The notes beneath the pieces were generated by a model that was given only the letters and a program-made list of their open reading frames with translations, was not told the origin of the DNA and did no database searches. From Eledone cirrhosa (taxonomy: Eukaryota), in assembly GCA_964016885.1 (NCBI GenBank), contig CAXHJY010000069.1, forward strand, positions 1 through 50,022: 50,022 nt of DNA. Reading direction: 5' to 3'. Position 1 is the stretch's first letter, and each line of letters begins with the position of its first letter. This document shows positions 24,516-50,022 of this stretch, piece after piece. Position numbers and translations under genes: made by a program.

Positions 24516-24843
24516 TGACAGGAAATAGTATAGAGTATCTGTTCTATCTCTAATGTCAAAGAGTTAAAATTAGATGGATAAAGAGTAGTCTCCCTTTAAA
24601 AGGAGGGGTTTTTTTGTTGTTTTTTTATATATATGCCTGTTTAAGTCTGTGGGAGAAGGCATGAAGGTGTAAGTATGTGAGTGTGTGTGTGTGAGTGTGA
24701 GAAGATAAGTATATTCGTAAATGTGGGGGATAGGTGTTATCTGCTGTTATAACTGGTTTTGTGTGTGTATGTGTGAGAGAGTATAAGTGGAGGTGTAAGC
24801 ATGTGTGTGTGTGGGGTGTGTAAATATGGGGCTAGGAGCCCTA

Positions 24844-25507
24844 TCAGGTTATAAATTTGGTGTTGAGTTCTAGTCTATTATTGATTGGTGGTTGTGTTTT
24901 ATCTATAATTAGTGCTTCCTTAATTCTAAGATTGCCGAGGTTTCTTTCCTTAGTTTCTATCCTAACTGTTATGGTTTTGTCGGTGTTTTTGCATTTAACT
25001 AGGTGTTTCTTAAATGAGGAAGCGTTAGTATTGAGGTGTTCTTTTATTCTTATGTGGAGTGGTCGGGTGGTGCTACCTACGTAGAAGTTGTTGCATTTGT
25101 CACACTCTAGTCTGTATACGACGTAAGCCTGGTGGCATAGGTCTGTGTCGTTGATGAGGCAGTTGGCTAGTCTGCTGCAGTTGTCATGTCTGGTGGAGTG
25201 TCTTTTGGTTAGCTCTCCGTGTAGAGAAGGACCTGAGTGGGCCAGTTGGATATCTAGTCCCTCTCGTCTGATGGCTCTGCGGATGGCTGTTGTTGTTTCT
25301 TCACTGAAGTGTGGGAACTTCAGGAAGCAAGTGTTAGTGCCTCGGGTGTGGTGTCCTCTGTTCTTTCTGGCACGGTTTGTGGTGGATGTCGTGTATCCGT
25401 TTAGTTTGAGTACTTTCAGGAAATGTGTGGTGTGTGTGTCTCGGTCTCTTGCGTCGGTGCATTTGTTCTGGATACGTGCCAGTTCGTTCTTTATGTATCC
25501 GAACTTG
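24844..25507 (-). pseudogene. PLE C-terminal thumb/linker + GIY-YIG endonuclease fragment
   Basis: Manual translation LKLNGY...FLKFPHFSEE...VVYRLECDKCNNFYVGST...FIT*. One frameshift near 25430. Confidence 0.88.
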
Positions 25508-25508
25508 G

Positions 25509-25971
25509 CAGTGAAGAAACAACAACAGCCATCCGCAGAGCCATCAGACGAGAGGGACTAGATATCCAACTGGCCCACTCAGGTCCTTCTCTACGCGGAC
25601 AGCTAACCAAAAGACACTCCACCAGACATGACAACTGCTGCAGACTAGCCAACTGCCCCATCAACGACACAGACCTATGACACCAGGCTTACGTCGTATA
25701 CAGACTAGAGTGTGACAAATGCAACAACTTCTACGTAGGTAGCACCACCCGACCACTCCACATAAGAATAAAAGAACACCTCAATACTAACGCTTCCTCA
25801 TTTAAGAAACACCTAGTTAAATGCAAAAACACCGACAAAACCATAACAGTTAGGATAGAAACTAAGGAAAGAAACCTCGGCAATCTTAGAATTAAGGAAG
25901 CACTAATTATAGATAAAACACAACCACCAATCAATAATAGACTAGAACTCAACACCCAATTTATAACCTGA
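25509..25971 (+). pseudogene. Inverted duplicate of the GIY-YIG fragment with a premature TGA (25678-25680)
   Basis: Same peptide as the left arm, with TGC>TGA. Confidence 0.88.
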
Positions 25972-26352
25972 TAAGGCTCCTAGCCCCATATTTACACACC
26001 CTACACACACACATGCTTACACATCCACTTATTCTCTCTCACACATACACACACAAAACCAGTTCTAACACCAGATAACACCTATCCCCCACATTTACGA
26101 ATAGACTTATCTTCTCACACTCACACACACACACATACTTACACCTTCATGCCTTCTCCCACACACTTAAAGAGGCATATATATTTAAAAAAAATAAAAT
26201 AAACCCTAAACAAACCCCTTTTAAAGGGAGACTACTCTTTATCCATCTAATTTTAACTCTTTGACATTAGAGATAGAACAGATACTCTATACTATTTCCT
26301 GTCAGCGTGGCTTGGCAAGATATCTAGATGGCTGGTTTGAGACCTTTATTTC

Positions 26353-26387
26353 CCTCTGAAGAAGAGATATTACCTCGAAAATTAAGG
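26353..26387 (+). ncRNA. Ultra-minimal or degenerate hammerhead, family G
   Basis: CCT-CTGAAGA-A-GAG(ATATTAC)CTC-GAA-AATT-A-AGG, at the expected position downstream of the GIY-YIG ORF. Confidence 0.55.
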
Positions 26388-26501
26388 ACATTTAAATAGA
26401 TCTAAGGTAAAAGACGATTTGTCAACAATATCTTTTGCATTTGCATTCATTTTTCTATGTCCATACCTGCATTGTTTTGGCTTTATTATACATATTCAAA
26501 C

Positions 26502-29573
<3,072 letters not shown>

Positions 29574-29584
29574 TAAATATATAT

Positions 29585-29681
<97 letters not shown>

Positions 29682-30026
29682 TTTATATATATATATATAT
29701 ATATATATAAATATTTATATATATATAAATATATATATATAAATATTTATATATATATAAATATTATATATAAAATATTTATATATATATAAATATATAT
29801 ATATAAATATTTATATATATATAAATATATATATATATAAATATATAAATAAATACAATATCGGAGAAAGCTTTTTAGCGATACTCCGGCCAAATTCCAA
29901 CTCACTCAACAAACATTAGGAAATAAGTGACTATATTCCCAATTAAGCGTTCGGGGTGCTAAATAAAAGTATTGCGTGGAAAATTGGCTGTATTATTTCA
30001 TATAAGACATATCTAACATATCTCTT

Positions 30027-30150
30027 CCAGAGGACGTCTCGTTTCATTATAGGATTCCTACAATTTGGGTGAAATTATACCAATTTTTGTCGGAGCTTGT
30101 ATACCATCAATAGATATATATTCAAGTGGGCTCCTATAATTCATCAGTGG
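30027..30150 (-). ncRNA. Degenerate type I hammerhead, family H
   Basis: CCA-CTGATGA-ATTATAGGA(long loop)TCCTATAAT-GAAA-CGAGACGTCC-TC-TGG. Perfect 9-bp stem II, imperfect stems I and III. Confidence 0.55.
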
Positions 30151-30482
30151 GTGCCCCATTAATACTAATATTGATAATCTAACCAACATCAGAATTTAGC
30201 GATAATCATCATCCTCTGTGCTTGAGGTATCCGTGAGGTTGCCAGTGCAGCAGTTTTAAAGAAATGCTCAAACTGATTCAAATAATGAGGAAGTAAATTA
30301 CCGCCAAAAAAAAAATACATGCGCATGACAATGAATTCTGAAAGGAATTCAGACCCCGTGCTAAGGAACTCAATTGGAAATTGAAAAAATATCTATGTGT
30401 GTACAACATTGATGACACACACAGATATTTTCTCGGGCAAAATAACAGAATGATATATATATATATATATATATATAGATAT

Positions 30483-30536
30483 ATGTAAGTATGTATGTAT
30501 ACGTACATACATTATGTATACAGACGTACAGTAGCA

Positions 30537-30623
<87 letters not shown>

Positions 30624-30719
30624 TATATATACATACACATACACATATGCATACAGGTACACATACATATATGCACGCATCAGTTTAGCCGACGTTTATT
30701 ATAACGCGTGCTTTGTTCG
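30483..30719 (-). repeat. Inverted 5' arm of the retrozyme-like array
   Basis: Reverse complement of ~30826-31034 of the first array unit. Confidence 0.92.
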
Positions 30720-30918
30720 CTTGAAACTAGTACATCGTTCCTGTGTCAGTGTTGAACAAAAAGTGACGTGGTTGCCTTAACACTGTATGGCATAAATTCA
30801 GGCTGTTCGATTTGTTGACAAACAAACGAACAAAGCACGCGTTATAATAAACGTCGGCTAAACTGATGCGTGCATATATGTATGTGTACCTGTATGCATA
30901 TGTGTATGTGTATGTATA

Positions 30919-30970
<52 letters not shown>

Positions 30971-31436
30971 TATATGCATGCTACTGTACCGTCTGTATAC
31001 ATATATGTATGTACGTATACATACATACTTACATTTAGGTAAGTGCCATACTAAGAGTGAGAAATGAAATTTCGTTTTTCATTTTCAACTTATCGTTCTC
31101 GGTATGCCTGACCGATTTAACTCACTCAATATGCAAATTAGGCTGCTCAGCCGTTAATTTTCATAAGGAAAGTATATACTTTCGAACGTTCAACTATCTG
31201 GCAGATGGGTAAACGGTGCTAATGATAGCTAACAAGCTTGAAACTAGTACATCGTTCCTGTGTCAGTGTTGAACAAAAAGGTGACGTGGTTGCCTTAACA
31301 CTGTATGGCATAAATTCAGGCTGTTCGATTTGTTGACAAACAAAAGAACAAAGCACGCGTTATAATAAACGTCGGCTAAACTGATGCGTGCATATATGTA
31401 TGTGTACCTGTATGCATATGTGTATGTGTATGTATA

Positions 31437-31512
<76 letters not shown>

Positions 31513-31983
31513 TATATGCATGCTACTGTACGTCTGTATACATATATGTATGTACGTATACATACATACTTACATTTAAGTAAGTGCCATACTAAGAGTG
31601 AGAAATGAAATTTCGTTTTCATTTTTTTCAACTTATCGTTCTCGTATGCCTGACCGATTTAACTCACTCAATATGCAAATTAGGCTGCTCAGCCGTTAAT
31701 TTTCATAAGGAAAGCATATACTTTCGAACGTTCAACTATCTGGCAGATGGGTAAACGGTGCTGATGATAGCTAACAAGCTTGAAACTGTACATCGTTCCT
31801 GTGTCAGTGTTGAACAAACAGGTGACGTGGTTGCCTTAACACTGTATGGCATAAATTCAGGCTGTTCGATTTGTTGACAAACAAACGAACAAAGCACGCG
31901 TTATAATAAACGTCGGCTAAACTGATGCGTGCATATATGTATGTGTACCTGTATGCATATGTGTATGTGTATGTATATATATG

Positions 31984-32077
<94 letters not shown>

Positions 32078-32543
32078 TATGCATGCTACTGTAGGTCTGT
32101 ATACATGTATGTATGTACGTATACATACATACTTACATTTAAGTAAGTGCCATACTAAGAGTGAGAAATGAAATTTCGTTTTCATTTTTTTCAACTTATC
32201 GTTCTCGGTATGCCTGACCGATTTAACTCACTCAATATGCAAATTAGGCTGCTCAGCCGTTAATTTTCATAAGGAAAGTATATACTTTCGAACGTTCAAC
32301 TATCTGGCAGATGGGTAAACGGTGCTGATGATAGCTAACAAGCTTGAAACTAGTACATCGTTCCTGTGTCAGTGTTGAACAAAAAGGTGACGTGGTTGCC
32401 TTAACACTGTATGGCATAAATTCAGGCTGTTCGATTTGTTGACAACAAACGAACAAAGCACGCGTTATAATAAACGTCGGCTAAACTGATGCGTGCATAT
32501 ATGTAATGTGTACCTGTATGCATATGTGTATGTGTATGTATAT

Positions 32544-32595
<52 letters not shown>

Positions 32596-33060
32596 TATGC
32601 ATGCTACTGTACGTCTGTATACATATATGTATGTACGTATACATACATACTTACATTTAAGTAAGTGCCATACTAAGAGTGAGAAATGAAATTTCGTTTT
32701 CATTTTTTTCAACTTATCGTTCTCGGTATGCCTGACCGATTTAACTCACTCAATATGCAAATTAGGCTGCTCAGCCGTTAATTTTCATAAGGAAAGTATA
32801 TACTTTCGAACGTTCAACTATCTGGCAGATGGGTAAACGGTGCTGATGATAGCTAACAAGCTTGAAACTAGTACATCGTTCCTGTGTCAGTGTTGAACAA
32901 AAAGGTGACGTGGTTGCCTTAACACTGTATGGCATAAATTCAGGCTGTTCGATTTGTTGACAAACAAACGAACAAAGCACGCGTTATAATAAACGTCGGC
33001 TAAACTGATGCGTGCATATATGTATGTGTACCTGTATGCATATGTGTATGTGTATGTATA

Positions 33061-33118
<58 letters not shown>

Positions 33119-33585
33119 TATATGCATGCTACTGTACGTCTGTATACATATATGTATGTACGTATACATACATACTTACATTTAAGTAAGTGCCATACTA
33201 AGAGTGAGAAATGAAATTTCGTTTTCATTTTTTTCAACTTATCGTCCTCGGTATGCCTGACCGATTTAACTCACTCAATATGCAAATTAGGCTGCTCAGC
33301 CGTTAATTTTCATACGGAAAGTATATACTTTCGAACGTTCAACTATCTGGCAGATGGGTAAACGGTGCTGATGATAGCTAACAAGCTTGAAACTAGTACA
33401 TCGTTCCTGTGTCAGTGTTGAACAAAAATGTGACGTGGTTGCCTTAACACTGTATGGCATAAATTCAGGCTGTTCGATTTGTTGACAAACAAACGAACAA
33501 AGCACGCGTTATAATAAACGTCGGCTAAACTGATGCGTGCATATATGTATGTGTACCTGTATGCATATGTGTATGTGTATGTATA

Positions 33586-33647
<62 letters not shown>

Positions 33648-34114
33648 TATATGCATGCTACTGTACGTCTGTATACATATATGTATGTACGTATACATAC
33701 ATACTTACATTTAAGTAAGTGCCATACTAAGAGTGAGAAATGAAATTTCGTTTTCATTTTTTTCAACTTATCGTTCTCGGTATGCCTGACCGATTTAACT
33801 CACTCAATATGCAAATTAGGCTGCTCAGCCGTTAATTTTCATAAGGAAAGTATATACTTTCGAACGTTCAACTATCTGGCAGATGGGTAAACGGTGCTGA
33901 TGATAGCTAACAAGCTTGAAACTAGTACATCGTTCCTGTGTCAGTGTTGAACAAAAAGGTGACGTGGTTGCCTTAACACTGTATGGCATAAATTCAGGCT
34001 GTTCGATTTGTTGACAAACAAACGAACAAAGCACGCGTTATAATAAACGTAGGCTAAACTGATGCGTGCATATATGTATGTGTACCTGTATGCATATGTG
34101 TATGTGTATGTATA

Positions 34115-34186
<72 letters not shown>

Positions 34187-34653
34187 TATATGCATGCTAC
34201 TGTACGTCTGTATACATATATGTATGTACGTATACATACATACTTACATTTAAGTAAGTGCCATACTAAGAGTGAGAAATGAATTTTCGTTTTCATTTTT
34301 TTCAACTTATCGTTCTCGGTATGCCTGACCGATTTAACTCACTCAATATGCAAATTAGGCTGCTCAGCCGTTAATTTTCATAAGGAAAGTATATACTTTC
34401 GAACGTTCAACTATCTGGCAGATGGGTAAACGGTGCTGATGATAGCTAACAAGCTTGAAACTAGTACATCGTTCCTGTGTCAGTGTTGAACAAAAAGGTG
34501 ACGTGGTTGCCTTAACACTGTATGGCATAAATTCAGGCTGTTCGATTTGTTGACAAACAAACGAACAAAGCACGCGTTATAATAAATGTCGGCTAAACTG
34601 ATGCGTGCATATATGTATGTGTACCTGTATGCATATGTGTATGTGTATGTTTA

Positions 34654-34708
<55 letters not shown>

Positions 34709-35196
34709 ATATATATATGTATATATATGCATGCTACTGTACGTCTGTATACATATATGTATGTACGTATACATACATACTTACATTTAAGTAAGTGCCA
34801 TACTAAGAGTGAGAAATGAAATTTCGTTTTCATTTTTTTCAACTTATCGTTCTCGGTATGCCTGACCGATTTAACTCACTCAATATGCAAATTAGGCTGC
34901 TCAGCCGTTAATTTTCATAAGGAAAGTATATTCTTTCGAACGTTCAACTATCTGGCAGATGGGTAAACGGTGCTGATGATAGCTAACAAGCTTGAAACTA
35001 GTACATCGTTCCTGTGTCAGTGTTGAACAAAAAGATGATGTGGTTGCCTTAACACTGTATGGCATAAATTCAGGCTGTGCGATTTGTTGACAAACAAACG
35101 AACAAAGCACGCGTTATAATAAACGTCGGCGAAACTGATGCGTGCATATATGTATGTGTACCTGTATGCATATGTGTATGTGTATGTATATATATG

Positions 35197-35245
<49 letters not shown>

Positions 35246-35713
35246 GCATGCTACTGTACGTCTGTATACGTATATGTATGTACGTATACATACATACTTA
35301 CATTTAAGTAAGTGCCATACTAAGAGTGAGAAATGAAATTTCGTTTTCATTTTTTTCAACTTATCGTTCTCGGTATGCCTGACCGATTTAACTCACTCAA
35401 TATGCAAATTAGGCTGCTCAGCCGTTAATTTTCATAAGGAAAGTATATACTTTCGAACGTTCAACTATCTGGCAGATGGGTAAACGGTGCTGATGATAGC
35501 TAACAAGCTTGAAACTAGTACATCGTTCCTGTGTCAGTGTTGAACAAAAAGGTGACGTGGTTGCCTTAACACTGTATGGCATAAATTCAGGCTGTTCGAT
35601 TTGTTGACAAACAAACGAACAAAGCACGCGTTATAATAAACGTCGGCTAAACTGATGCGTGCATATATGTATGTGTACCTGTATGCATATGTGTATGTGT
35701 ATGTATATATATG

Positions 35714-35774
<61 letters not shown>

Positions 35775-36241
35775 TTTATGCATGCTACTGTACGTCTGTA
35801 TACATATATGTATGTACGTATACATACATACTTACATTTAAGTAAGTGCCATACTAAGAGTGAGAAATGAAATTTCGTTTTCATTTTTTTCAACTTATCG
35901 TTCTCGGTATGCCTGACCGATTTAACTCACTCAATATGCAAATTAGGCTGCTCAGCCGTTAATTTTCATAAGGAAAGTATATACTTTCGAACGTTCAACT
36001 ATCTGGCAGATGGGTAAAAGGTGCTGATGATAGCTAACAAGCTTGAAACTAGTACATCGTTCCTGTGTCAGTGTTGAACAAAAAGGTGACGTGGTTGCCT
36101 TAACACTGTATGGCATAAATTCAGGCTGTTCGATTTGTTGACAAACAAACGAACAAAGCACGCGTTATAATAAACGTCGGCTAAACTGATGCGTGCATAT
36201 ATGTATGTGTACCTGTATGCATATGTGTATGTGTATGTATA

Positions 36242-36313
<72 letters not shown>

Positions 36314-36780
36314 TATATGCATGCTACTGTACGTCTGTATACATATATGTATGTACGTATACATACATACTTACATTTAAGTAAGTGAAATACTAAGAGT
36401 GAGAAATGAAATTTCGTTTTCATTTTTTTCAACTTATCGTTCTCGGTATGCCTGACCGATTTAACTCACTCAATATGCAAATTAGGCTGCTCAGCCGTTA
36501 ATTTTCATAAGGAAAGTATATACTTTCGAACGTTCAACTATGTGGCAGATGGGTAAACGGTGCTGATGATAGCTAACAAGCTTGAAACTAGTACATCGTT
36601 CCTGTGTCAGTGTTGAACAAAAAGGTGACGTGGTTGCCTTAACACTGTATGGCATAAATTCAGGCTGTTCGATTTGTTGACAAACAAACGAACAAAGCAC
36701 GCGTTATAATAAACGTCGGCTAAACTGATGCGTGCATATATGTATGTGTACCTGTATGCATATGTGTATGTGTATGTATA

Positions 36781-36858
<78 letters not shown>

Positions 36859-37331
36859 TATATGCATGCTACTGTACGTCTGTATACATATATGTATGTA
36901 CGTATACATACATACTTATATTTAAGTAAGTGCCATACTAAGAGTGAGAAATGAAATTTCGTTTTCATTTTTTTCAACTTATCGTTCTCGGTATGCCTGA
37001 CCGATTTAACTCACTCAATATGCAAATTAGGCTGCTCAGCCGTTAATTTTCATAAGGAAAGTATATACTTTCGAACGCTCAACTATCTGGCAGATGGGTA
37101 AACGGTGCTGATGATAGCTAACAAGCTTGAAAGTAGTACATCGTTCCTGTGTCAGTGTTGAACAAAAAGGTGACGTGGTTGCCTTAACACTGTATGGCAT
37201 AAATTCAGGCTGTTCGATTTGTTGACAAACAAACGAACAAAGCACGCGTTATAATAAACGTCGGCTAAACTGATGCGTGCATATATGTATGTGTACCTGT
37301 ATGCATATGTGTATGTGTATGTATATATATG

Positions 37332-37390
<59 letters not shown>

Positions 37391-37852
37391 GCATGCTACT
37401 GTACGTCTGTATACATATATGTATGTACGTATACATACATACATACATTTAAGTAAGTGCCATACTAAGAGTGAGAAATGAAATTTCGTTTTCATTTTTT
37501 TCAACTTATCGTTCTCGGTATGCCTGACCGATTTAACTCACTCAATATGCAAATTAGGCTGCTCAGCCGTTAATTTTCATAAGGAAAGTATATTCTTTCA
37601 AACGTTCAACTATCTGGCAGATGGGTAAACGGTGCTGATGATAGCTAACAAGCTTGAAACTAGTACATCGTTCCTGTGTCAGTGTTGAACAAAAAGATGA
37701 TGTGGTTGCCTTAACACTGTATGGCATAAATTCAGGCTGTTCGATTTGTTGACAAACAAACGAACAAAGCACGCGTTATAATAAACGTCGGCGAAACTGA
37801 TGCGTGCATATATGTATGTGTACCTGTATGCATATGTGTATGTGTATGTATA

Positions 37853-37921
<69 letters not shown>

Positions 37922-38393
37922 GTATATATATGCATGCTACTGTACGTCTGTATACATATATGTATGTACGTATACATACATACTTACATTTAAGTAAGTG
38001 CCATACTAAGAGTGAGAAATGAAATTTCGTTTTCATTTTTTTCAACTTATCGTTCTCGGTATGCCTGACCGATTTAACTCACTCAATATGCAAATTAGGC
38101 TGCTCAGCCGTTAATTTTCATAAGGAAAGTATATTCTTTCGAACGTTCAACTATCTGGCAGATGGGTAAACGGTGCTGATGATAGCTAACAAGCTTGAAA
38201 CTAGTACATCGTTCCTGTGTCAGTGTTGAACAAAAAGATGATGTGGTTGCCTTAACACTGTATGGCATAAATTCAGGCTGTTCGATTTGTTGACAAACAA
38301 ACGAACAAAGCACGCGTTATAATAAACGTCGGCGAAACTGATGCGTGCATATATGTATGTGTACCTGTATGCATATGTGTATGTGTATGTATA

Positions 38394-38451
<58 letters not shown>

Positions 38452-38918
38452 TATATGCATGCTACTGTACGTCTGTATACGTATATGTATGTACGTATAC
38501 ATACATACTTACATTTAAGTAAGTGCCATACTAAGAGTGAGAAATGAAATTTCGTTTTCATTTTTTTCAACTTATCGTTCTCGGTATGCCTGACCGATTT
38601 AACTCACTCAATATGCAAATTAGGCTGCTCAGCCGTTAATTTTCATAAGGAAAGTATATACTTTCGAACGTTCAACTATCTGGCAGATGGGTAAACGGTG
38701 CTGATGATAGCTAACAAGGTTGAAACTAGTACATCGTTCCTGTGTCAGTGTTGAACAAAAAGGTGACGTGGTTGCCTTAACACTCTATGGCATAAATTCA
38801 GGCTGTTCGATTTGTTGACAAACAAACGAACAAAGCACGCGTTATAATAAACGTCGGCTAAACTGATGCGTGCATATATGTATGTGTACCTGTATGCATA
38901 TGTGTATGTGTATGTATA

Positions 38919-38983
<65 letters not shown>

Positions 38984-39445
38984 GCATGCTACTGTACGTC
39001 TGTATACATATATGTATGTACGTATACATACATACTTACATTTAAGTAAGTGCCATACTAAGAGTGAGAAATGAAATTTCGTTTTCATTTTTTTCAACTT
39101 ATCGTTCTCGGTATGCCTGACCGATTTAACTCACTCAATATGCAAATTAGGCTGCTCAGCCGTTAATTTTCATAAGGAAAGTATATACTTTCGAACGTTC
39201 AACTATCTGGCAGATGGGTAAACGGTGCTGATGATAGCTAACAAGCTTGAAACTAGTACATCGTTCCTGTGTCAGTGTTGAACAAAAAGGTGACGTGGTT
39301 GCCTTAACACTGTATGGCATAAATTCAGGCTGTTCGATTTGTTGACAAACAAACGAACAAAGCACGCGTTATAATAAACGTCGGCTAAACTGATGCGTGC
39401 ATATATGTATGTGTACCTGTATGCATATGTGTATGTGTATGTATA

Positions 39446-39500
<55 letters not shown>

Positions 39501-39972
39501 GTATATATATGCATGCTACTGTACGTCTGTATACATATATGTATGTACGTATACATACATACTTACATTTAAGTAAGTGCCATACTAAGAGTGAGAAATG
39601 AAATTTCGTTTTCATTTTTTTCAACTTATCGTTCTCGGTATGCCTGACCGATTTAACTCACTCAATATGCAAATTAGGCTGCTCAGCCGTTAATTTTCAT
39701 AAGGAAAGTATATTCTTTCGAACGTTCAACTATCTGGCAGATGGGTAAACGGTGCTGATGATAGCTAACAAGCTTGAAACTAGTACATCGTTCCTGTGTC
39801 AGTGTTGAACAAAAAGATGATGTGGTTGCCTTAACACTGTATGGCATAAATTCAGGCTGTTCGATTTGTTGACAAACAAACGAACAAAGCACGCGTTATA
39901 ATAAACGTCGGCGAAACTGATGCGTGCATATATGTATGTGTACCTGTATGCATATGTGTATGTGTATGTATA

Positions 39973-40026
<54 letters not shown>

Positions 40027-40493
40027 TATATGCATGCTACTGTACGTCTGTATACGTATATGTATGTACGTATACATACATACTTACATTTAAGTAAGTG
40101 CCATACTAAGAGTGAGAAATGAAATTTCGTTTTCATTTTTTTCAACTTATCGTTCTCGGTATGCCTGACCGATTTAACTCACTCAATATGCAAATTAGGC
40201 TGCTCAGCCGTTAATTTTCATAAGGAAAGTATATACTTTCGAACGTTCAACTATCTGGCAGATGGGTAAACGGTGCTGATGATAGCTAACAAGCTTGAAA
40301 CTAGTACATCGTTCCTGTGTCAGTGTTGAACAAAAAGGTGACGTGGTTGCCTTAACACTGTATGGCATAAATTCAGGCTGTTCGATTTGTTGACAAACAA
40401 ACGAACAAAGCACGCGTTATAATAAACGTCGGCTAAACTGATGCGTGCATATATGTATGTGTACCTGTATGCATATGTGTATGTGTATGTATA

Positions 40494-40573
<80 letters not shown>

Positions 40574-41038
40574 TATGCATGCTACTGTACGTCTGTATAC
40601 ATATATGTATGTACGTATACATACATACTTACATTTAAGTAAGTGCCATACTAAGAGTGAGAAATGAAATTTCGTTTTCATTTTTTTCAACTTATCGTTC
40701 TCGGTATGCCTGACCGATTTAACTCACTCAATATGCAAATTAGGCTGCTCAGCCGTTAATTTTCATAAGGAAAGTATATACTTTCGAACGTTCAACTATC
40801 TGGCAGATGGGTAAACGGTGCTGATGATAGCTAACAAGCTTGAAACTAGTACATCCTTCTTGTGTCAGTTTTGAACAAAAAGGTGACGTGGTTGCCTTAA
40901 CACTGTATGGCATAAATTCAGGCTGTTCGATTTGTTGACAAACAAACGAACCAAGCACGCGTTATAATAAACGTCGGCTAAACTGATGCGTGCATATATG
41001 TATGTGTACCTGTATGCATATGTGTATGTGTATGTATA

Positions 41039-41094
<56 letters not shown>

Positions 41095-41553
41095 TGCTAC
41101 TGTACGTCTGTATACATATATGTATGTACGTATACATACATACTTACATTTAAGTAAGTGCCATACTAAGAGTGAGAAATGAAATTTCGTTTTCATTTTT
41201 TTCAACTTATCGTTCTCGGTATGCCTGACCGATTTAACTCACTCAATATGCAAATTAGGCTGCTCAGCCGTTAATTTTCATAAGGAAAGTATATACTTTC
41301 GAACGTTCAACTATCTGGCAGATGGGTAAACGGTGCTGATGATAGCTAACAAGCTTGAAACTAGTACATCGTTCCTGTGTCAGTGTTGAACAAAAAGGTG
41401 ACGTGGTTGCCTTAACACTGTATGGCATAAATTCAGGCTGTTCGATTTGTTGACAAACAAACGAACAAAGCACGCGTTATAATAAACGTCGGCTAAACTG
41501 ATGCGTGCATATATGTATGTGTACCTGTATGCATATGTGTATGTGTATGTATA

Positions 41554-41636
<83 letters not shown>

Positions 41637-42098
41637 GCATGCTACTGTACGTCTGTATACATATATGCATGTACGTATACATACATACTTACATTTAAGT
41701 AAGTGCCATACTAAGAGTGAGAAATGAAATTTCGTTTTCATTTTTTTCAACTTATCGTTCTCGGTATGCCTGACCGATTTAACTCACTCAATATGCAAAT
41801 TAGGCTGCTCAGCCGTTAATTTTCATAAGGAAAGTATATACTTTCGAACGTTCAACTATCTGGCAGATGGGTAAACGGTGCTGATGATAGCTAACAAGCT
41901 TGAAACTAGTACATCGTTCCTGTGTCAGTGTTGAACAAAAAGATGACGTGGTTGCCTTAACACTGTATGGCATAAATTCAGGCTGTTCGATTTGTTGACA
42001 AACAAACGAACAAAGCACGCGTTATAATAAACGTCGGCTAAACTGATGCGTGCATATATGTATGTGTACCTGTATGCATATGTGTATATGTATGTATA

Positions 42099-42178
<80 letters not shown>

Positions 42179-42645
42179 TATATGCATGCTACTGTACGTT
42201 TGTATACATATATGTATGTACGTATACATACATACTTACATTTAAGTAAGTGCCATACTAAGAGTGAGAAATTAAATTTCGTTTTCATTTTATTCAACTT
42301 ATCGTTCTCGGTATGCCTGACCGATTTAACTCACTCAATATGCAAATTAGGCTGCTCAGCCGTTAATTTTCACAAGGAAAGTATATACTTTCGAACGTTC
42401 AACTATCTGGCAGATGGGTAAACGGTGCTGATGATAGCTAACAAGCTTGAAACTAGTACATCGTTCCTGTGTCAGTGTTGAACAAAAAGGTGACGTGGTT
42501 GCCTTAACACTGTATGGCATAAATTCAGGCTGTTCGATTTGTTGACAAACAAACGAACAAAGCACGCGTTATAATAAACGTCGGCTAAACTGATGCGTGC
42601 ATATATGTATGTGTACCTGTATGCATATGTGTATGTGTATGTATA

Positions 42646-42722
<77 letters not shown>

Positions 42723-43176
42723 GCATGCTACTGTACGTCTGTATACATATATGTATGTACGTATACATACATACTTACATTTAAGTAAGTGCCATACTAA
42801 GAGTGAGAAATGAAATTTCGTTTTCATTTTTTTCAACTTATCGTTCTCGGTATGCCTGACCGATTTAACTCACTCAATATGCAAATTAGGCTGCTCAGCC
42901 GTTAATTTTCATAAGGAAAGTATATACTTTCGAACGTTCAACTATCTGGCAGATGGGTAAACGGTGCTGATGATAGCTAACAAGCTTGAAACTAGTACAT
43001 CGTTCCTGTGTCAGTGTTGAACAAAAAGGTGACGTGGCTGCCTTAACACTGTATGGCATAAGTTCAGGCTGTTCGATTTGTTGACAAACAAACGAACAAA
43101 GCACGCGTTATAATAAACGTCGGCTAAACTGATGCGTGCATATATGTATGTGTACCTGTATGCATATGTGTATGTG

Positions 43177-43247
<71 letters not shown>

Positions 43248-43715
43248 GCATGCTACTGTACGTCTGTATACATATATGTATGTACGTATACATACATACT
43301 TACATTTAAGTAAGTGCCATACTAAGAGTGAGAAATGAAATTTCGTTTTCATTTTTTTCAACTTATCGTTCTCGGTATGCCTGACCGATTTAACTCACTC
43401 AATATGCAAATTAGGCTGCTCGGCCGTTAATTTTCATAAGGAAAGTATATACTTTCGAACGTTCAACTATCTGGCAGATGGGTAAACGGTGCTGATGATA
43501 GCTAACAAGCTTGAAACTAGTACATCGTTCCTGTGTCAGTGTTGAACAAAAAGGTGACGTGGTTGCCTTAACACTGTATGGCATAAATTCAGGCTGTTCG
43601 ATTTGTTGACAAACAAACGAACAAAGCACGCGTTATAATAAACGTCGGCTAAACTGATGCGTGCATATATGTATGTGTACCTGTATGCATATGTGTATGT
43701 GTATGTATATATATG

Positions 43716-43785
<70 letters not shown>

Positions 43786-43898
43786 TGCTACTGTACGTCT
43801 GTATACATATATGTATGTACGTATACATACATACTTACATTTAAGTAAGTGCCATACTAAGAGTGAGAAATGAAATTTCGTTTTCATTTTTTTCAACT

Positions 43899-43901
<3 letters not shown>
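30719..43901 (+). mobile_element. Retrozyme-like tandem array: ~24.7 x ~530-bp non-coding units, one hammerhead each
   Basis: HHR cores at 31219, 31761, 32325, 32843, 33368, 33897, 34436, 34973, 35490, 36024, 36563, 37108, 37635, 38176, 38701, 39228, 39755, 40276, 40821, 41336, 41881, 42428, 42967 and 43492. Unit length varies mainly by its internal (TA)n. Confidence 0.88.
32836..32880 (+). ncRNA. Minimal type I hammerhead of the array (representative of 24 copies)
   Basis: AACGGTG-CTGATGA-T-AGCT(AACA)AGCT-T-GAA-ACTAGT-A-CATCGTT: 7-bp stem I, canonical core, palindromic stem III, GUA triplet. Confidence 0.9.
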
Positions 43902-45589
<1,688 letters not shown>

Positions 45590-46992: not shown

Positions 46993-47394
46993 AAAAAATG
47001 TGGTCGCTCTAATTGTGGAACCTGCACTCACCTCATTGAAGGCAACACGTATACATTTAAATCAGGACAAAATTTTACTGTAAAAAATCACTTCACTTGC
47101 TCATCAAAAAATCTAATTTATGCCATTAAATGTAAAGGATGCAATGAAGATTATATAGGACAAACTAAACTCACACTCAGAAACAGAATGACAGTTCATC
47201 GCCAACAATTACGAGATCCAACCACGAGACAAATACCACTAAGTGCACATCTAGACATTTGCGCAAGTAATAAGACACCCAAATTCCAAGTCTTCCCATT
47301 TTACCTTTGCGCTAACAATACAACAGAACAAATGCGAATAAATAAGGAAAATATGTTTATTCAAAAATATAGACCAACATTAAATAAGGTTTAA
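46993..47394 (+). pseudogene. Uninterrupted but 5'-truncated Neptune-type Cys linker + GIY-YIG endonuclease
   Basis: KKCGRSNCGTC...FTCSSKNLIYAIKCKGCNEDYIGQT...RMTVHRQQ...KENMFIQKYRPTLNKV*, in frame with ORF 47188-47394. Confidence 0.92.
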
Positions 47395-49359: not shown

Positions 49360-50022
49360 CTCTTTTACTCTTTTACCTGTTTCAGCCATCCGGCTGAGGC
49401 CATGCTGGGGCACCGCCCTTGTTGCTACACATTTTATCTCCAGCCTGTATAGGTTGGCCACTGGTGTAGGAGGGAGTTTGTTGCTGCTGCCCTTAGGTTT
49501 CCCTCGTGTCTTGCTGTGGGCTCATCCGGGATCCTGGATAACAAGGTGTCGAGATGTTTCTTAAAGACATCCACCTCCACGTCATGCAAGTCTCGCAGAT
49601 GCCTCGACAGCCTGTTGAAGAGTTGAGGGCCCTTGAATCCCAGGCTATTGCAATACCTGCTCCTTATTCTAGATGTGGAAGACGGGACCTTTGGCACCAC
49701 ACAGTGACGTCCTGTTCGACGGTTGGTCCAGCTCCCAATGCCAAAGTTTGGTGCTAGTCCCTCCAGGATTTTCCACATGTAGATCACTGCGTATCTCTCC
49801 CGTCTTCGCTCCAAGGAGTAGAGGTTCAGTTCCTTCAGCCTCTCCCAGTAGCTTGTCTCCCTCATCTTGGCAATCCTCTTGGTGTAGCTTCGCTGGATTG
49901 CCTCAAGCTCTGTGGTTAGTTTGACACTATGGGGTGACCACAGCTGGGAGCAGTAGTCCAGGCGGCTTAGGACAAAAGTCCTCCACAGTGTCAACATGGT
50001 GTCTCGATCTCTTGTAAGGAAA
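49359..50022 (-). mobile_element. CR1-group LINE 3' end, family L-a, copy 2 (runs off the window)
   Basis: Near-identical to 1539-2210. ORF 49434-49997 is open to its natural stop. Confidence 0.93.

Follow-up and report, generated by a model that had tools for sequence, protein, structure and literature searches.

The window described here, a 50,022-nt stretch of Eledone cirrhosa DNA, contains a hammerhead-bearing repeat that was probably inserted into a TA microsatellite by the enzyme of a PLE, with priming on both target strands and with a template that was probably a circular RNA. A forward array (30719-43901) and a short inverted arm (30483-30718) form a single insertion inside (TA)n, and across the family the outer ends of such insertions fall at two fixed positions of the unit, one for each arm. 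The parts of the insertion are given below, with unit position 1 taken as the first base after cleavage.

30453 to 30482, no strand assigned: left half of the (TA)n target, from the sequence; the same flank is present on contig C3.
30483 to 30718, minus strand: inverted arm, unit position ~98 to 310, with its outer end at fixed site 1 (CTTACAT, then the TA repeat).
30719 to 30732, plus strand: the long arm's inner start, lying 14 nt ahead of the predicted cleavage site that comes first; C3 has this junction as well, and the arms overlap here by 1 nt.
30719 to 43901, plus strand: long arm with 25 predicted hammerhead sites, each unit with an internal (TA)n.
43485 to 43529, plus strand: last copy of the type I hammerhead-like motif, read by eye from the sequence, with a predicted cut after 43522.
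43841 to 43901, plus strand: the 61-nt 'tail' between the fixed ends, present at one end only, with its outer end at fixed site 2 (CAACTTAT, then the TA repeat).
43902 to 43932, no strand assigned: right half of the (TA)n target, from the sequence.

The first-pass annotation of this DNA had described much of this anatomy, and its description holds: the array starts 14 nt before the first predicted cleavage site (30719, GCTTGAAACTAGTA, site 30732/30733), it is preceded by an inverted piece of the unit, here measured as 236 nt and as the reverse complement of unit positions ~98-310, and it stops in mid-unit within (TA)n, at CAACTTAT (43901). Both outer ends lie away from the cleavage site, as had been claimed, and the proposal of one insertion stands as well, with array and inverted arm bounded by the two (TA)n halves and the same junction, ends and flanks found on C3. 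The 25 predicted sites of the long arm represent 24 full units and a partial last unit, in an array of ~13 kb. The tandem, non-coding unit has a GC content of about 0.32 and a length of ~527 nt (range 515-565 nt), with the length differences lying mostly in the internal TA tract. Since a 527-nt unit is too short to house an ORF for RT and GIY-YIG, and the arms consist of unit sequence only, the repeat is not an autonomous PLE. At the inversion junction the two arms share an exact overlap of 1 nt, with 4 of 5 nt alike. The flanks of the array (29856-30452 and 43948-44081) belong to other dispersed repeat families, and copies of the left-hand family stand in tandem at some loci, at a spacing of about 700 nt.

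Each unit reads as carrying a putative type I hammerhead. The motif has a 7-bp helix I (AACGGTG/CATCGTT), the core CTGATGA and GAAA, a 4-bp helix II and a palindromic minimal helix III, a feature that has been described for such hammerheads (PMC4209133). There are 25 copies of the cleavage motif, from 30733 to 43523, and core and helices I-II are present in all 25, a few having point changes. The assignment depends upon recognition of the core and helices by eye and lies below the Rfam cut-off, the search of the window returning no hammerhead at the gathering score (best HH9, 18.5 vs 52 bits, E 0.057); in the minimum free energy fold helix II is present and the active fold is absent.

With these properties the element fits a non-LTR retrozyme. 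The metazoan members of this group (Cervera and de la Pena 2020, PMC7229834; bioRxiv 10.64898/2026.07.22.740005) are likewise described as low-GC, tandem, non-coding units of a few hundred nucleotides with one type I hammerhead each, occurring as monomers to long multimers in genomes that also contain PLEs, and it is proposed there that they move through a circRNA with a PLE enzyme. Circular RNA templates and PLE mobilisation have been put forward for metazoan retrozymes (PMC7229834, PMC4209133), to which a kinship between retrozymes and PLE pLTRs has been added (Li, Clavereau and Pollet, bioRxiv 10.64898/2026.07.22.740005). The Eledone unit differs in its length of 527 nt with its own (TA)n tract and in being known from sequence alone, whereas expression, cleavage and circles are reported for the earlier elements. 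It differs also in its mapped ends, which reveal an inverted arm, a tail and the use of one site per arm, whereas the accessible text of those papers holds no mapping of ends. A literature search of freely readable texts, bioRxiv supplements apart, returned neither boundary mapping of retrozymes nor rolling-circle insertion. New here are the finding of a PLE signature on a retrozyme, the rule of one site per arm and a two-arm locus with alternating units.

Is the inversion junction real? The window is the whole of an unplaced 50,022-nt contig whose end resembles its start, a circumstance that might suggest a fold-back read or a mis-joined contig. Such an assembly artefact is nonetheless highly improbable given that the junction and ends recur in a diverged copy and that the same anatomy is seen at dozens of chromosomal loci with differing inner junctions. 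The second copy, on the minus strand of contig C3 (134.036-134.040 Mb), shares the inversion junction, both ends and the flanks, with 6 sites vs 25, and the window segment is collinear with C3 across about 34 kb. The non-repetitive flanks of the two differ by 60 substitutions in 8,251 aligned nt (0.73%), a figure that omits one of nine blocks, misaligned on inverted repeats, and becomes 1.42% with that block included. As two diverged copies share the junction, its origin in a single chimeric read is unlikely. An empty (TA)n allele was not found, both copies of the locus carrying the insertion and both flanks being repeat families. Separately, 49360-50022 repeats a LINE-like piece at 1540-2208 (2 substitutions in 662 nt) where C3 has other sequence, a possible tandem duplication or assembly loop.

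Outer ends were also mapped in the wider family, which numbers 14,256 exact matches to a 31-nt motif across the cut in the 3.0 Gb genome (reversed control 0) and which, at the loci mapped, ranges from monomers to multimers without terminal direct LTRs. Two samples were taken: 60 stretches chosen by the cleavage motif, comprising most of the first 100 matches listed (sample 1), and the first 64 matches on C1 among 415 to the 371 end, for which spanning the cut was not required (sample 2). If the array had been copied from a circularly permuted template its outer ends should be scattered over the unit, as the first-pass annotation predicted; instead, the 60 loci of sample 1 have outer ends clustered at ~310-313 and at 371, adjoining TA-type repeats. 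The youngest subfamily has 415 ends at 371 vs 1,192 read-throughs, and in older subfamilies with a variant tail the second outer end lies at 358-368 rather than 371. When both ends of a two-arm insertion could be resolved, 28 of 29 such insertions, read by eye, pair 310 with 371 (p 5.6e-8 vs independent choice), five further two-arm loci being left out of this count. An adjacent inverted arm is present at 42 of the 64 loci of sample 2 and absent from 22; among these 42 arms the outer end is at 303-317 in 36, at 333 in one (L160) and interrupted or unclear in five, and none ends at 371. Apart from L160, the exception to the pairing is L086, where 310 is paired with 310. One locus, L173, has a clear target duplication, which flanks a 310/371 insertion on either side and takes in about 11 non-repeat bases.

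With the outer ends confined to two positions that are fixed throughout the family, the inverted arm is best read as the product of a second priming, at whichever site the long arm does not use. For the same reason the TTAT at which the annotation had placed priming by chance microhomology is a programmed start site, so that internal priming is upheld and the chance element is not. In a separate observation, locus L187 (608-8791; G000:C1:282.137-282.146 Mb) holds a second two-arm insertion, of about 5+13 units and with ends at 371 and 310, that lies within another copy's TA tract; the retrozyme unit thus carries its own target.

It is this pattern of ends that points to a PLE enzyme. PLEs are described as having an inverted truncated copy and a tail of 30-40 nt at one end (PMC8557442, PMC3846280), and how such tails and inverted copies are formed has been named an open question (PMC8557442). 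In vitro, a purified PLE enzyme, for which a dimer is predicted, both cuts and extends the two strands, and it initiates at two internal sites of the RNA by which the tail is defined (PMC11167929). The 61 nt between 310 and 371 would fit such a tail by analogy. Around the start sites a structure is also predicted by folding, for which unit 17 serves as the example.

39558 to 39663, plus strand: predicted structure around the start sites in unit 17.

In the predicted fold ~310 lies in the loop of a 7-bp hairpin and 371 in a single-stranded, U-rich linker, the stem closing this linker requiring RNA beyond 371. The region is more stable than expected (z -3.9), with 1 of 200 shuffles equally stable; covariation is weak, with a double change in 1 of 24 pairs, and conservation here is biased by the anchors used to pick the sequences.

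The annotation had also seen the inverted-arm signature in the GIY-YIG PLEs of the window, and inverted arm pairs are indeed present in these PLE remnants. For the GIY-YIG domain, the Pfam cut-off is exceeded by 24847-25557 and 46993-47388, and 19010-19405 narrowly misses it. [quoted passage not shown] As a candidate driver of the retrozyme it was rejected, its tail being similar in length and its sequence bearing no likeness to the unit (score 26, with 34% of shuffles as high; one higher score is TA repeat only). No likeness of the unit to the other PLE remnants of the window was found, the full comparison covering the one active family. Further inverted-arm pairs in TA repeats, at 11243-12673, 15761-16675, 24516-26505 and 28726-29575, belong to other families and have different end offsets.

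The inner ends of the arms behave quite differently from the outer ones. In 61 of the 64 sample-2 loci there are 88 callable inner breakpoints, the TA-rich zone being left out, and these are scattered and not enriched at the cleavage site: none lies within 3 nt of the cut and two lie within 10 nt, vs 4.4 expected. The 14-nt offset at which the window array starts was accordingly rejected as having a special role. As inner ends do not pile up at the cut, copying does not stop by reaching a 5' end left by cleavage, and the earlier claim that the cleavage site was read through is supported. The accompanying claim of rolling-circle reverse transcription through ligated junctions fares less well, in that read-through alone is no proof of a ligated circle, an uncleaved multimer giving the same result. 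At the junctions between arms, 10 of 35 have inserted or unresolved bases; the other 25 overlap by at least 2 nt in 16 cases (17.7% by chance) and by at least 4 nt in seven (2.2% by chance).

This microhomology would also suit an inverted arm that arose when a single cDNA, or an antisense RNA, folded back and primed itself, along the lines of the self-priming on an antisense template proposed for PLE inversions (PMC3846280), as would the short arm of the window, which lies wholly within the long arm, and the junction of L041, which is inside a 16-nt palindrome. In at least nine loci (L031, L039, L127, L131, L136, L154, L157, L165 and L191), however, the arms are not nested, each holding sequence absent from the other, so there neither arm was copied from the other and fold-back is refuted as a general rule; at the window locus, taken alone, the nested arms would be compatible with fold-back copying. 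The inverted arm, moreover, has a fixed end site of its own, and the inner breakpoints of both arms lie within 50 nt of each other in 11 of 35 cases against 7.9 expected (p 0.15), leaving fold-back very improbable beside a second priming event.

What, then, was the shape of the template? Circular RNA is favoured, with somewhat better than even confidence. The same twin priming by a PLE enzyme could instead have used a linear transcript, uncleaved and read through from a tandem array already present, which we regard as possible though clearly the less probable. In its favour, minimal type I hammerheads are reported to cleave poorly (PMC4209133), and with an anole PLE in vitro cleavage was dispensable and uncleaved RNA was the main template (PMC11167929); in addition, long source arrays exist, and locus L179 holds unlike units in non-periodic order. 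A linear multimer has more difficulty with the 29 distinct variants that are each fixed in all units of one sampled insertion, as is expected if a single unit was read repeatedly, and with a perfect alternation of two unit types in both arms of a locus for which the assembly holds no alternating parent. Arrays carry their own signature throughout, both arms included, and in 17 of the 29 insertions with at least four units no variant is common to a subset of units.

The alternating locus, L129 (G000:C1:125825363-125835300, C1:125.83 Mb), is a near-perfect palindrome of 3.7 kb in which 7+7 units alternate perfectly between types A and B and both arms end with type A. Some 25 nt past the cut site every A unit has an expanded A run of 13-27 nt or longer, and the B marker has eight matches, six at L129 and two at one other locus, where the order is X,X,B,B,A and an A-to-B join is lacking. 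Most simply, the alternation is that of a two-unit circle read repeatedly; L129 could also descend from an alternating parent array missing from the assembly. Caution is needed, as in-place duplication can mimic alternation, for instance at L175, where it extends over part of one arm only. As a direct parent of L129, L179 was rejected, its A-like unit stopping at 310 and its TA tract differing. In the TA tracts of the units, across all loci, interruptions on the sense strand are far more often TG than CA (modal 45 vs 0), which may reflect inheritance. An imprint of A-to-I editing was considered and is not supported, with these interruptions treated as inherited and non-independent and with fixed substitutions symmetric (A>G 13, T>C 12).

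The length of the window array is not purely a product of reverse transcription, part of it having changed after insertion. This follows from the 6 sites of the C3 copy and from a two-unit variant block that is repeated within the array.

34467 to 35520, plus strand: units 8-9, the variant block of two units; it recurs at units 14-15 and 17-18 and, in part, at 13-14.
37666 to 38731, plus strand: units 14-15, copy of the variant block.
39259 to 40306, plus strand: units 17-18, copy of the variant block.

The marker of this block occurs four times in the genome, always in the window array, and with its shared substitutions so confined a few units were likely added in place. Could the whole array have grown in this manner, from a short PLE-type insertion of 1-2 units to 25 by unequal crossing-over alone, a model proposed for tandem retrozymes (bioRxiv 10.64898/2026.07.22.740005)? 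The disparity between 6 sites on C3 and 25 in the window, the private block duplicated in place and the higher-order repeats seen in old arrays (27 kb and over 30 kb) would all be accommodated. Most window units, by contrast, have private substitutions only, 38 in about 11,300 nt (0.34%), and have therefore long been separate, while very young insertions already have at least 11 near-identical units, some in both arms; growth by crossing-over alone is thus unlikely. The value of 0.34% is near half of the 0.73% flank divergence, so that the window units have been separate for about as long as the two copies of the locus, and the C3 units are similar, with 10 substitutions in about 2,400 nt. Most window units were likely present early, by these substitution counts, the C3 copy having shrunk or been collapsed, with rapid early growth of the array as a possible alternative. 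Among the older arrays, L180-L182 (C2:383.0 Mb) extends over more than 30 kb and L183-L186 (C3:356.47-356.49 Mb) over about 27 kb, the latter keeping its inverted arm and two-arm boundaries despite higher-order repeats.

With insertion by a PLE enzyme from a probably circular template as the preferred reading, events might have run as follows. The enzyme would nick both target strands, and reverse transcription would be primed at each of the two RNA sites. One target strand would prime with its 3' end at 371 and be extended upstream through many units, generating the long arm, and the opposite strand would prime at ~310, generating the inverted arm. Both cDNAs would pass the hammerhead site and stop at random points, after which their two ends would be joined via a few shared bases and filled in. 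Later unequal exchange and slippage would have gained and lost units and altered TA lengths inside the original boundaries.

In L1 twin priming one primer anneals to the poly(A) tail and the other to an arbitrary internal site, and the resulting pieces barely overlap. The Eledone insertions are alike in that cDNA primed by the two target strands would give an inverted segment and a microhomology join; they are unlike in that neither site is arbitrary, both being fixed and internal, and in that the arms overlap or extend over many units. Closer parallels are the EN+ PLEs (PMC8557442, PMC3846280; Poseidon PAc in vitro, PMC11167929), for which an inverted, 5'-truncated copy lying head-to-head, a tail confined to one end, targets that are (TA)n or AT-rich, and two internal start sites downstream of a hammerhead are reported. 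The Eledone unit differs from these in its lack of an ORF, its tail of 61 nt vs 30-40 and its arms of short-unit multimers; the EN+ PLE tail, moreover, is called optional or one-end, whereas one site per arm is near-obligatory in the two-arm insertions of Eledone. Non-autonomous Chlamys elements such as MRC1 (PMC8557442) are similar as non-autonomous partners of PLEs with multicopy head-to-tail insertions. They share 3' sequence with an autonomous family, whereas no sequence-related partner was found for the Eledone unit in the one family compared, and the Chlamys clade is described as being without canonical hammerheads, whereas the Eledone unit has a putative one.

A more specific proposal, to which we give even chances, is that the insertions are a rolling-circle footprint, in which a two-subunit PLE enzyme would act on a hammerhead-made circle, either monomer or dimer, with each subunit priming one strand at its own fixed site, so that multi-kb arrays would arise in one step and later become satellites. 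If true, this would explain the PLE tail and the inverted arm as one event and would supply the missing connection between PLEs and retrozyme circRNAs. That PLEs move animal retrozymes by way of circles has previously been proposed on the basis of shared ribozymes, co-occurrence and pLTR trees. The thousands of short non-coding copies in Eledone give a sharp rule, with two fixed start sites, one per arm, and free passage of the ribozyme site, a rule that is testable with the existing PLE in vitro assay, and the family illustrates how one insertion can lead on to satellite DNA.
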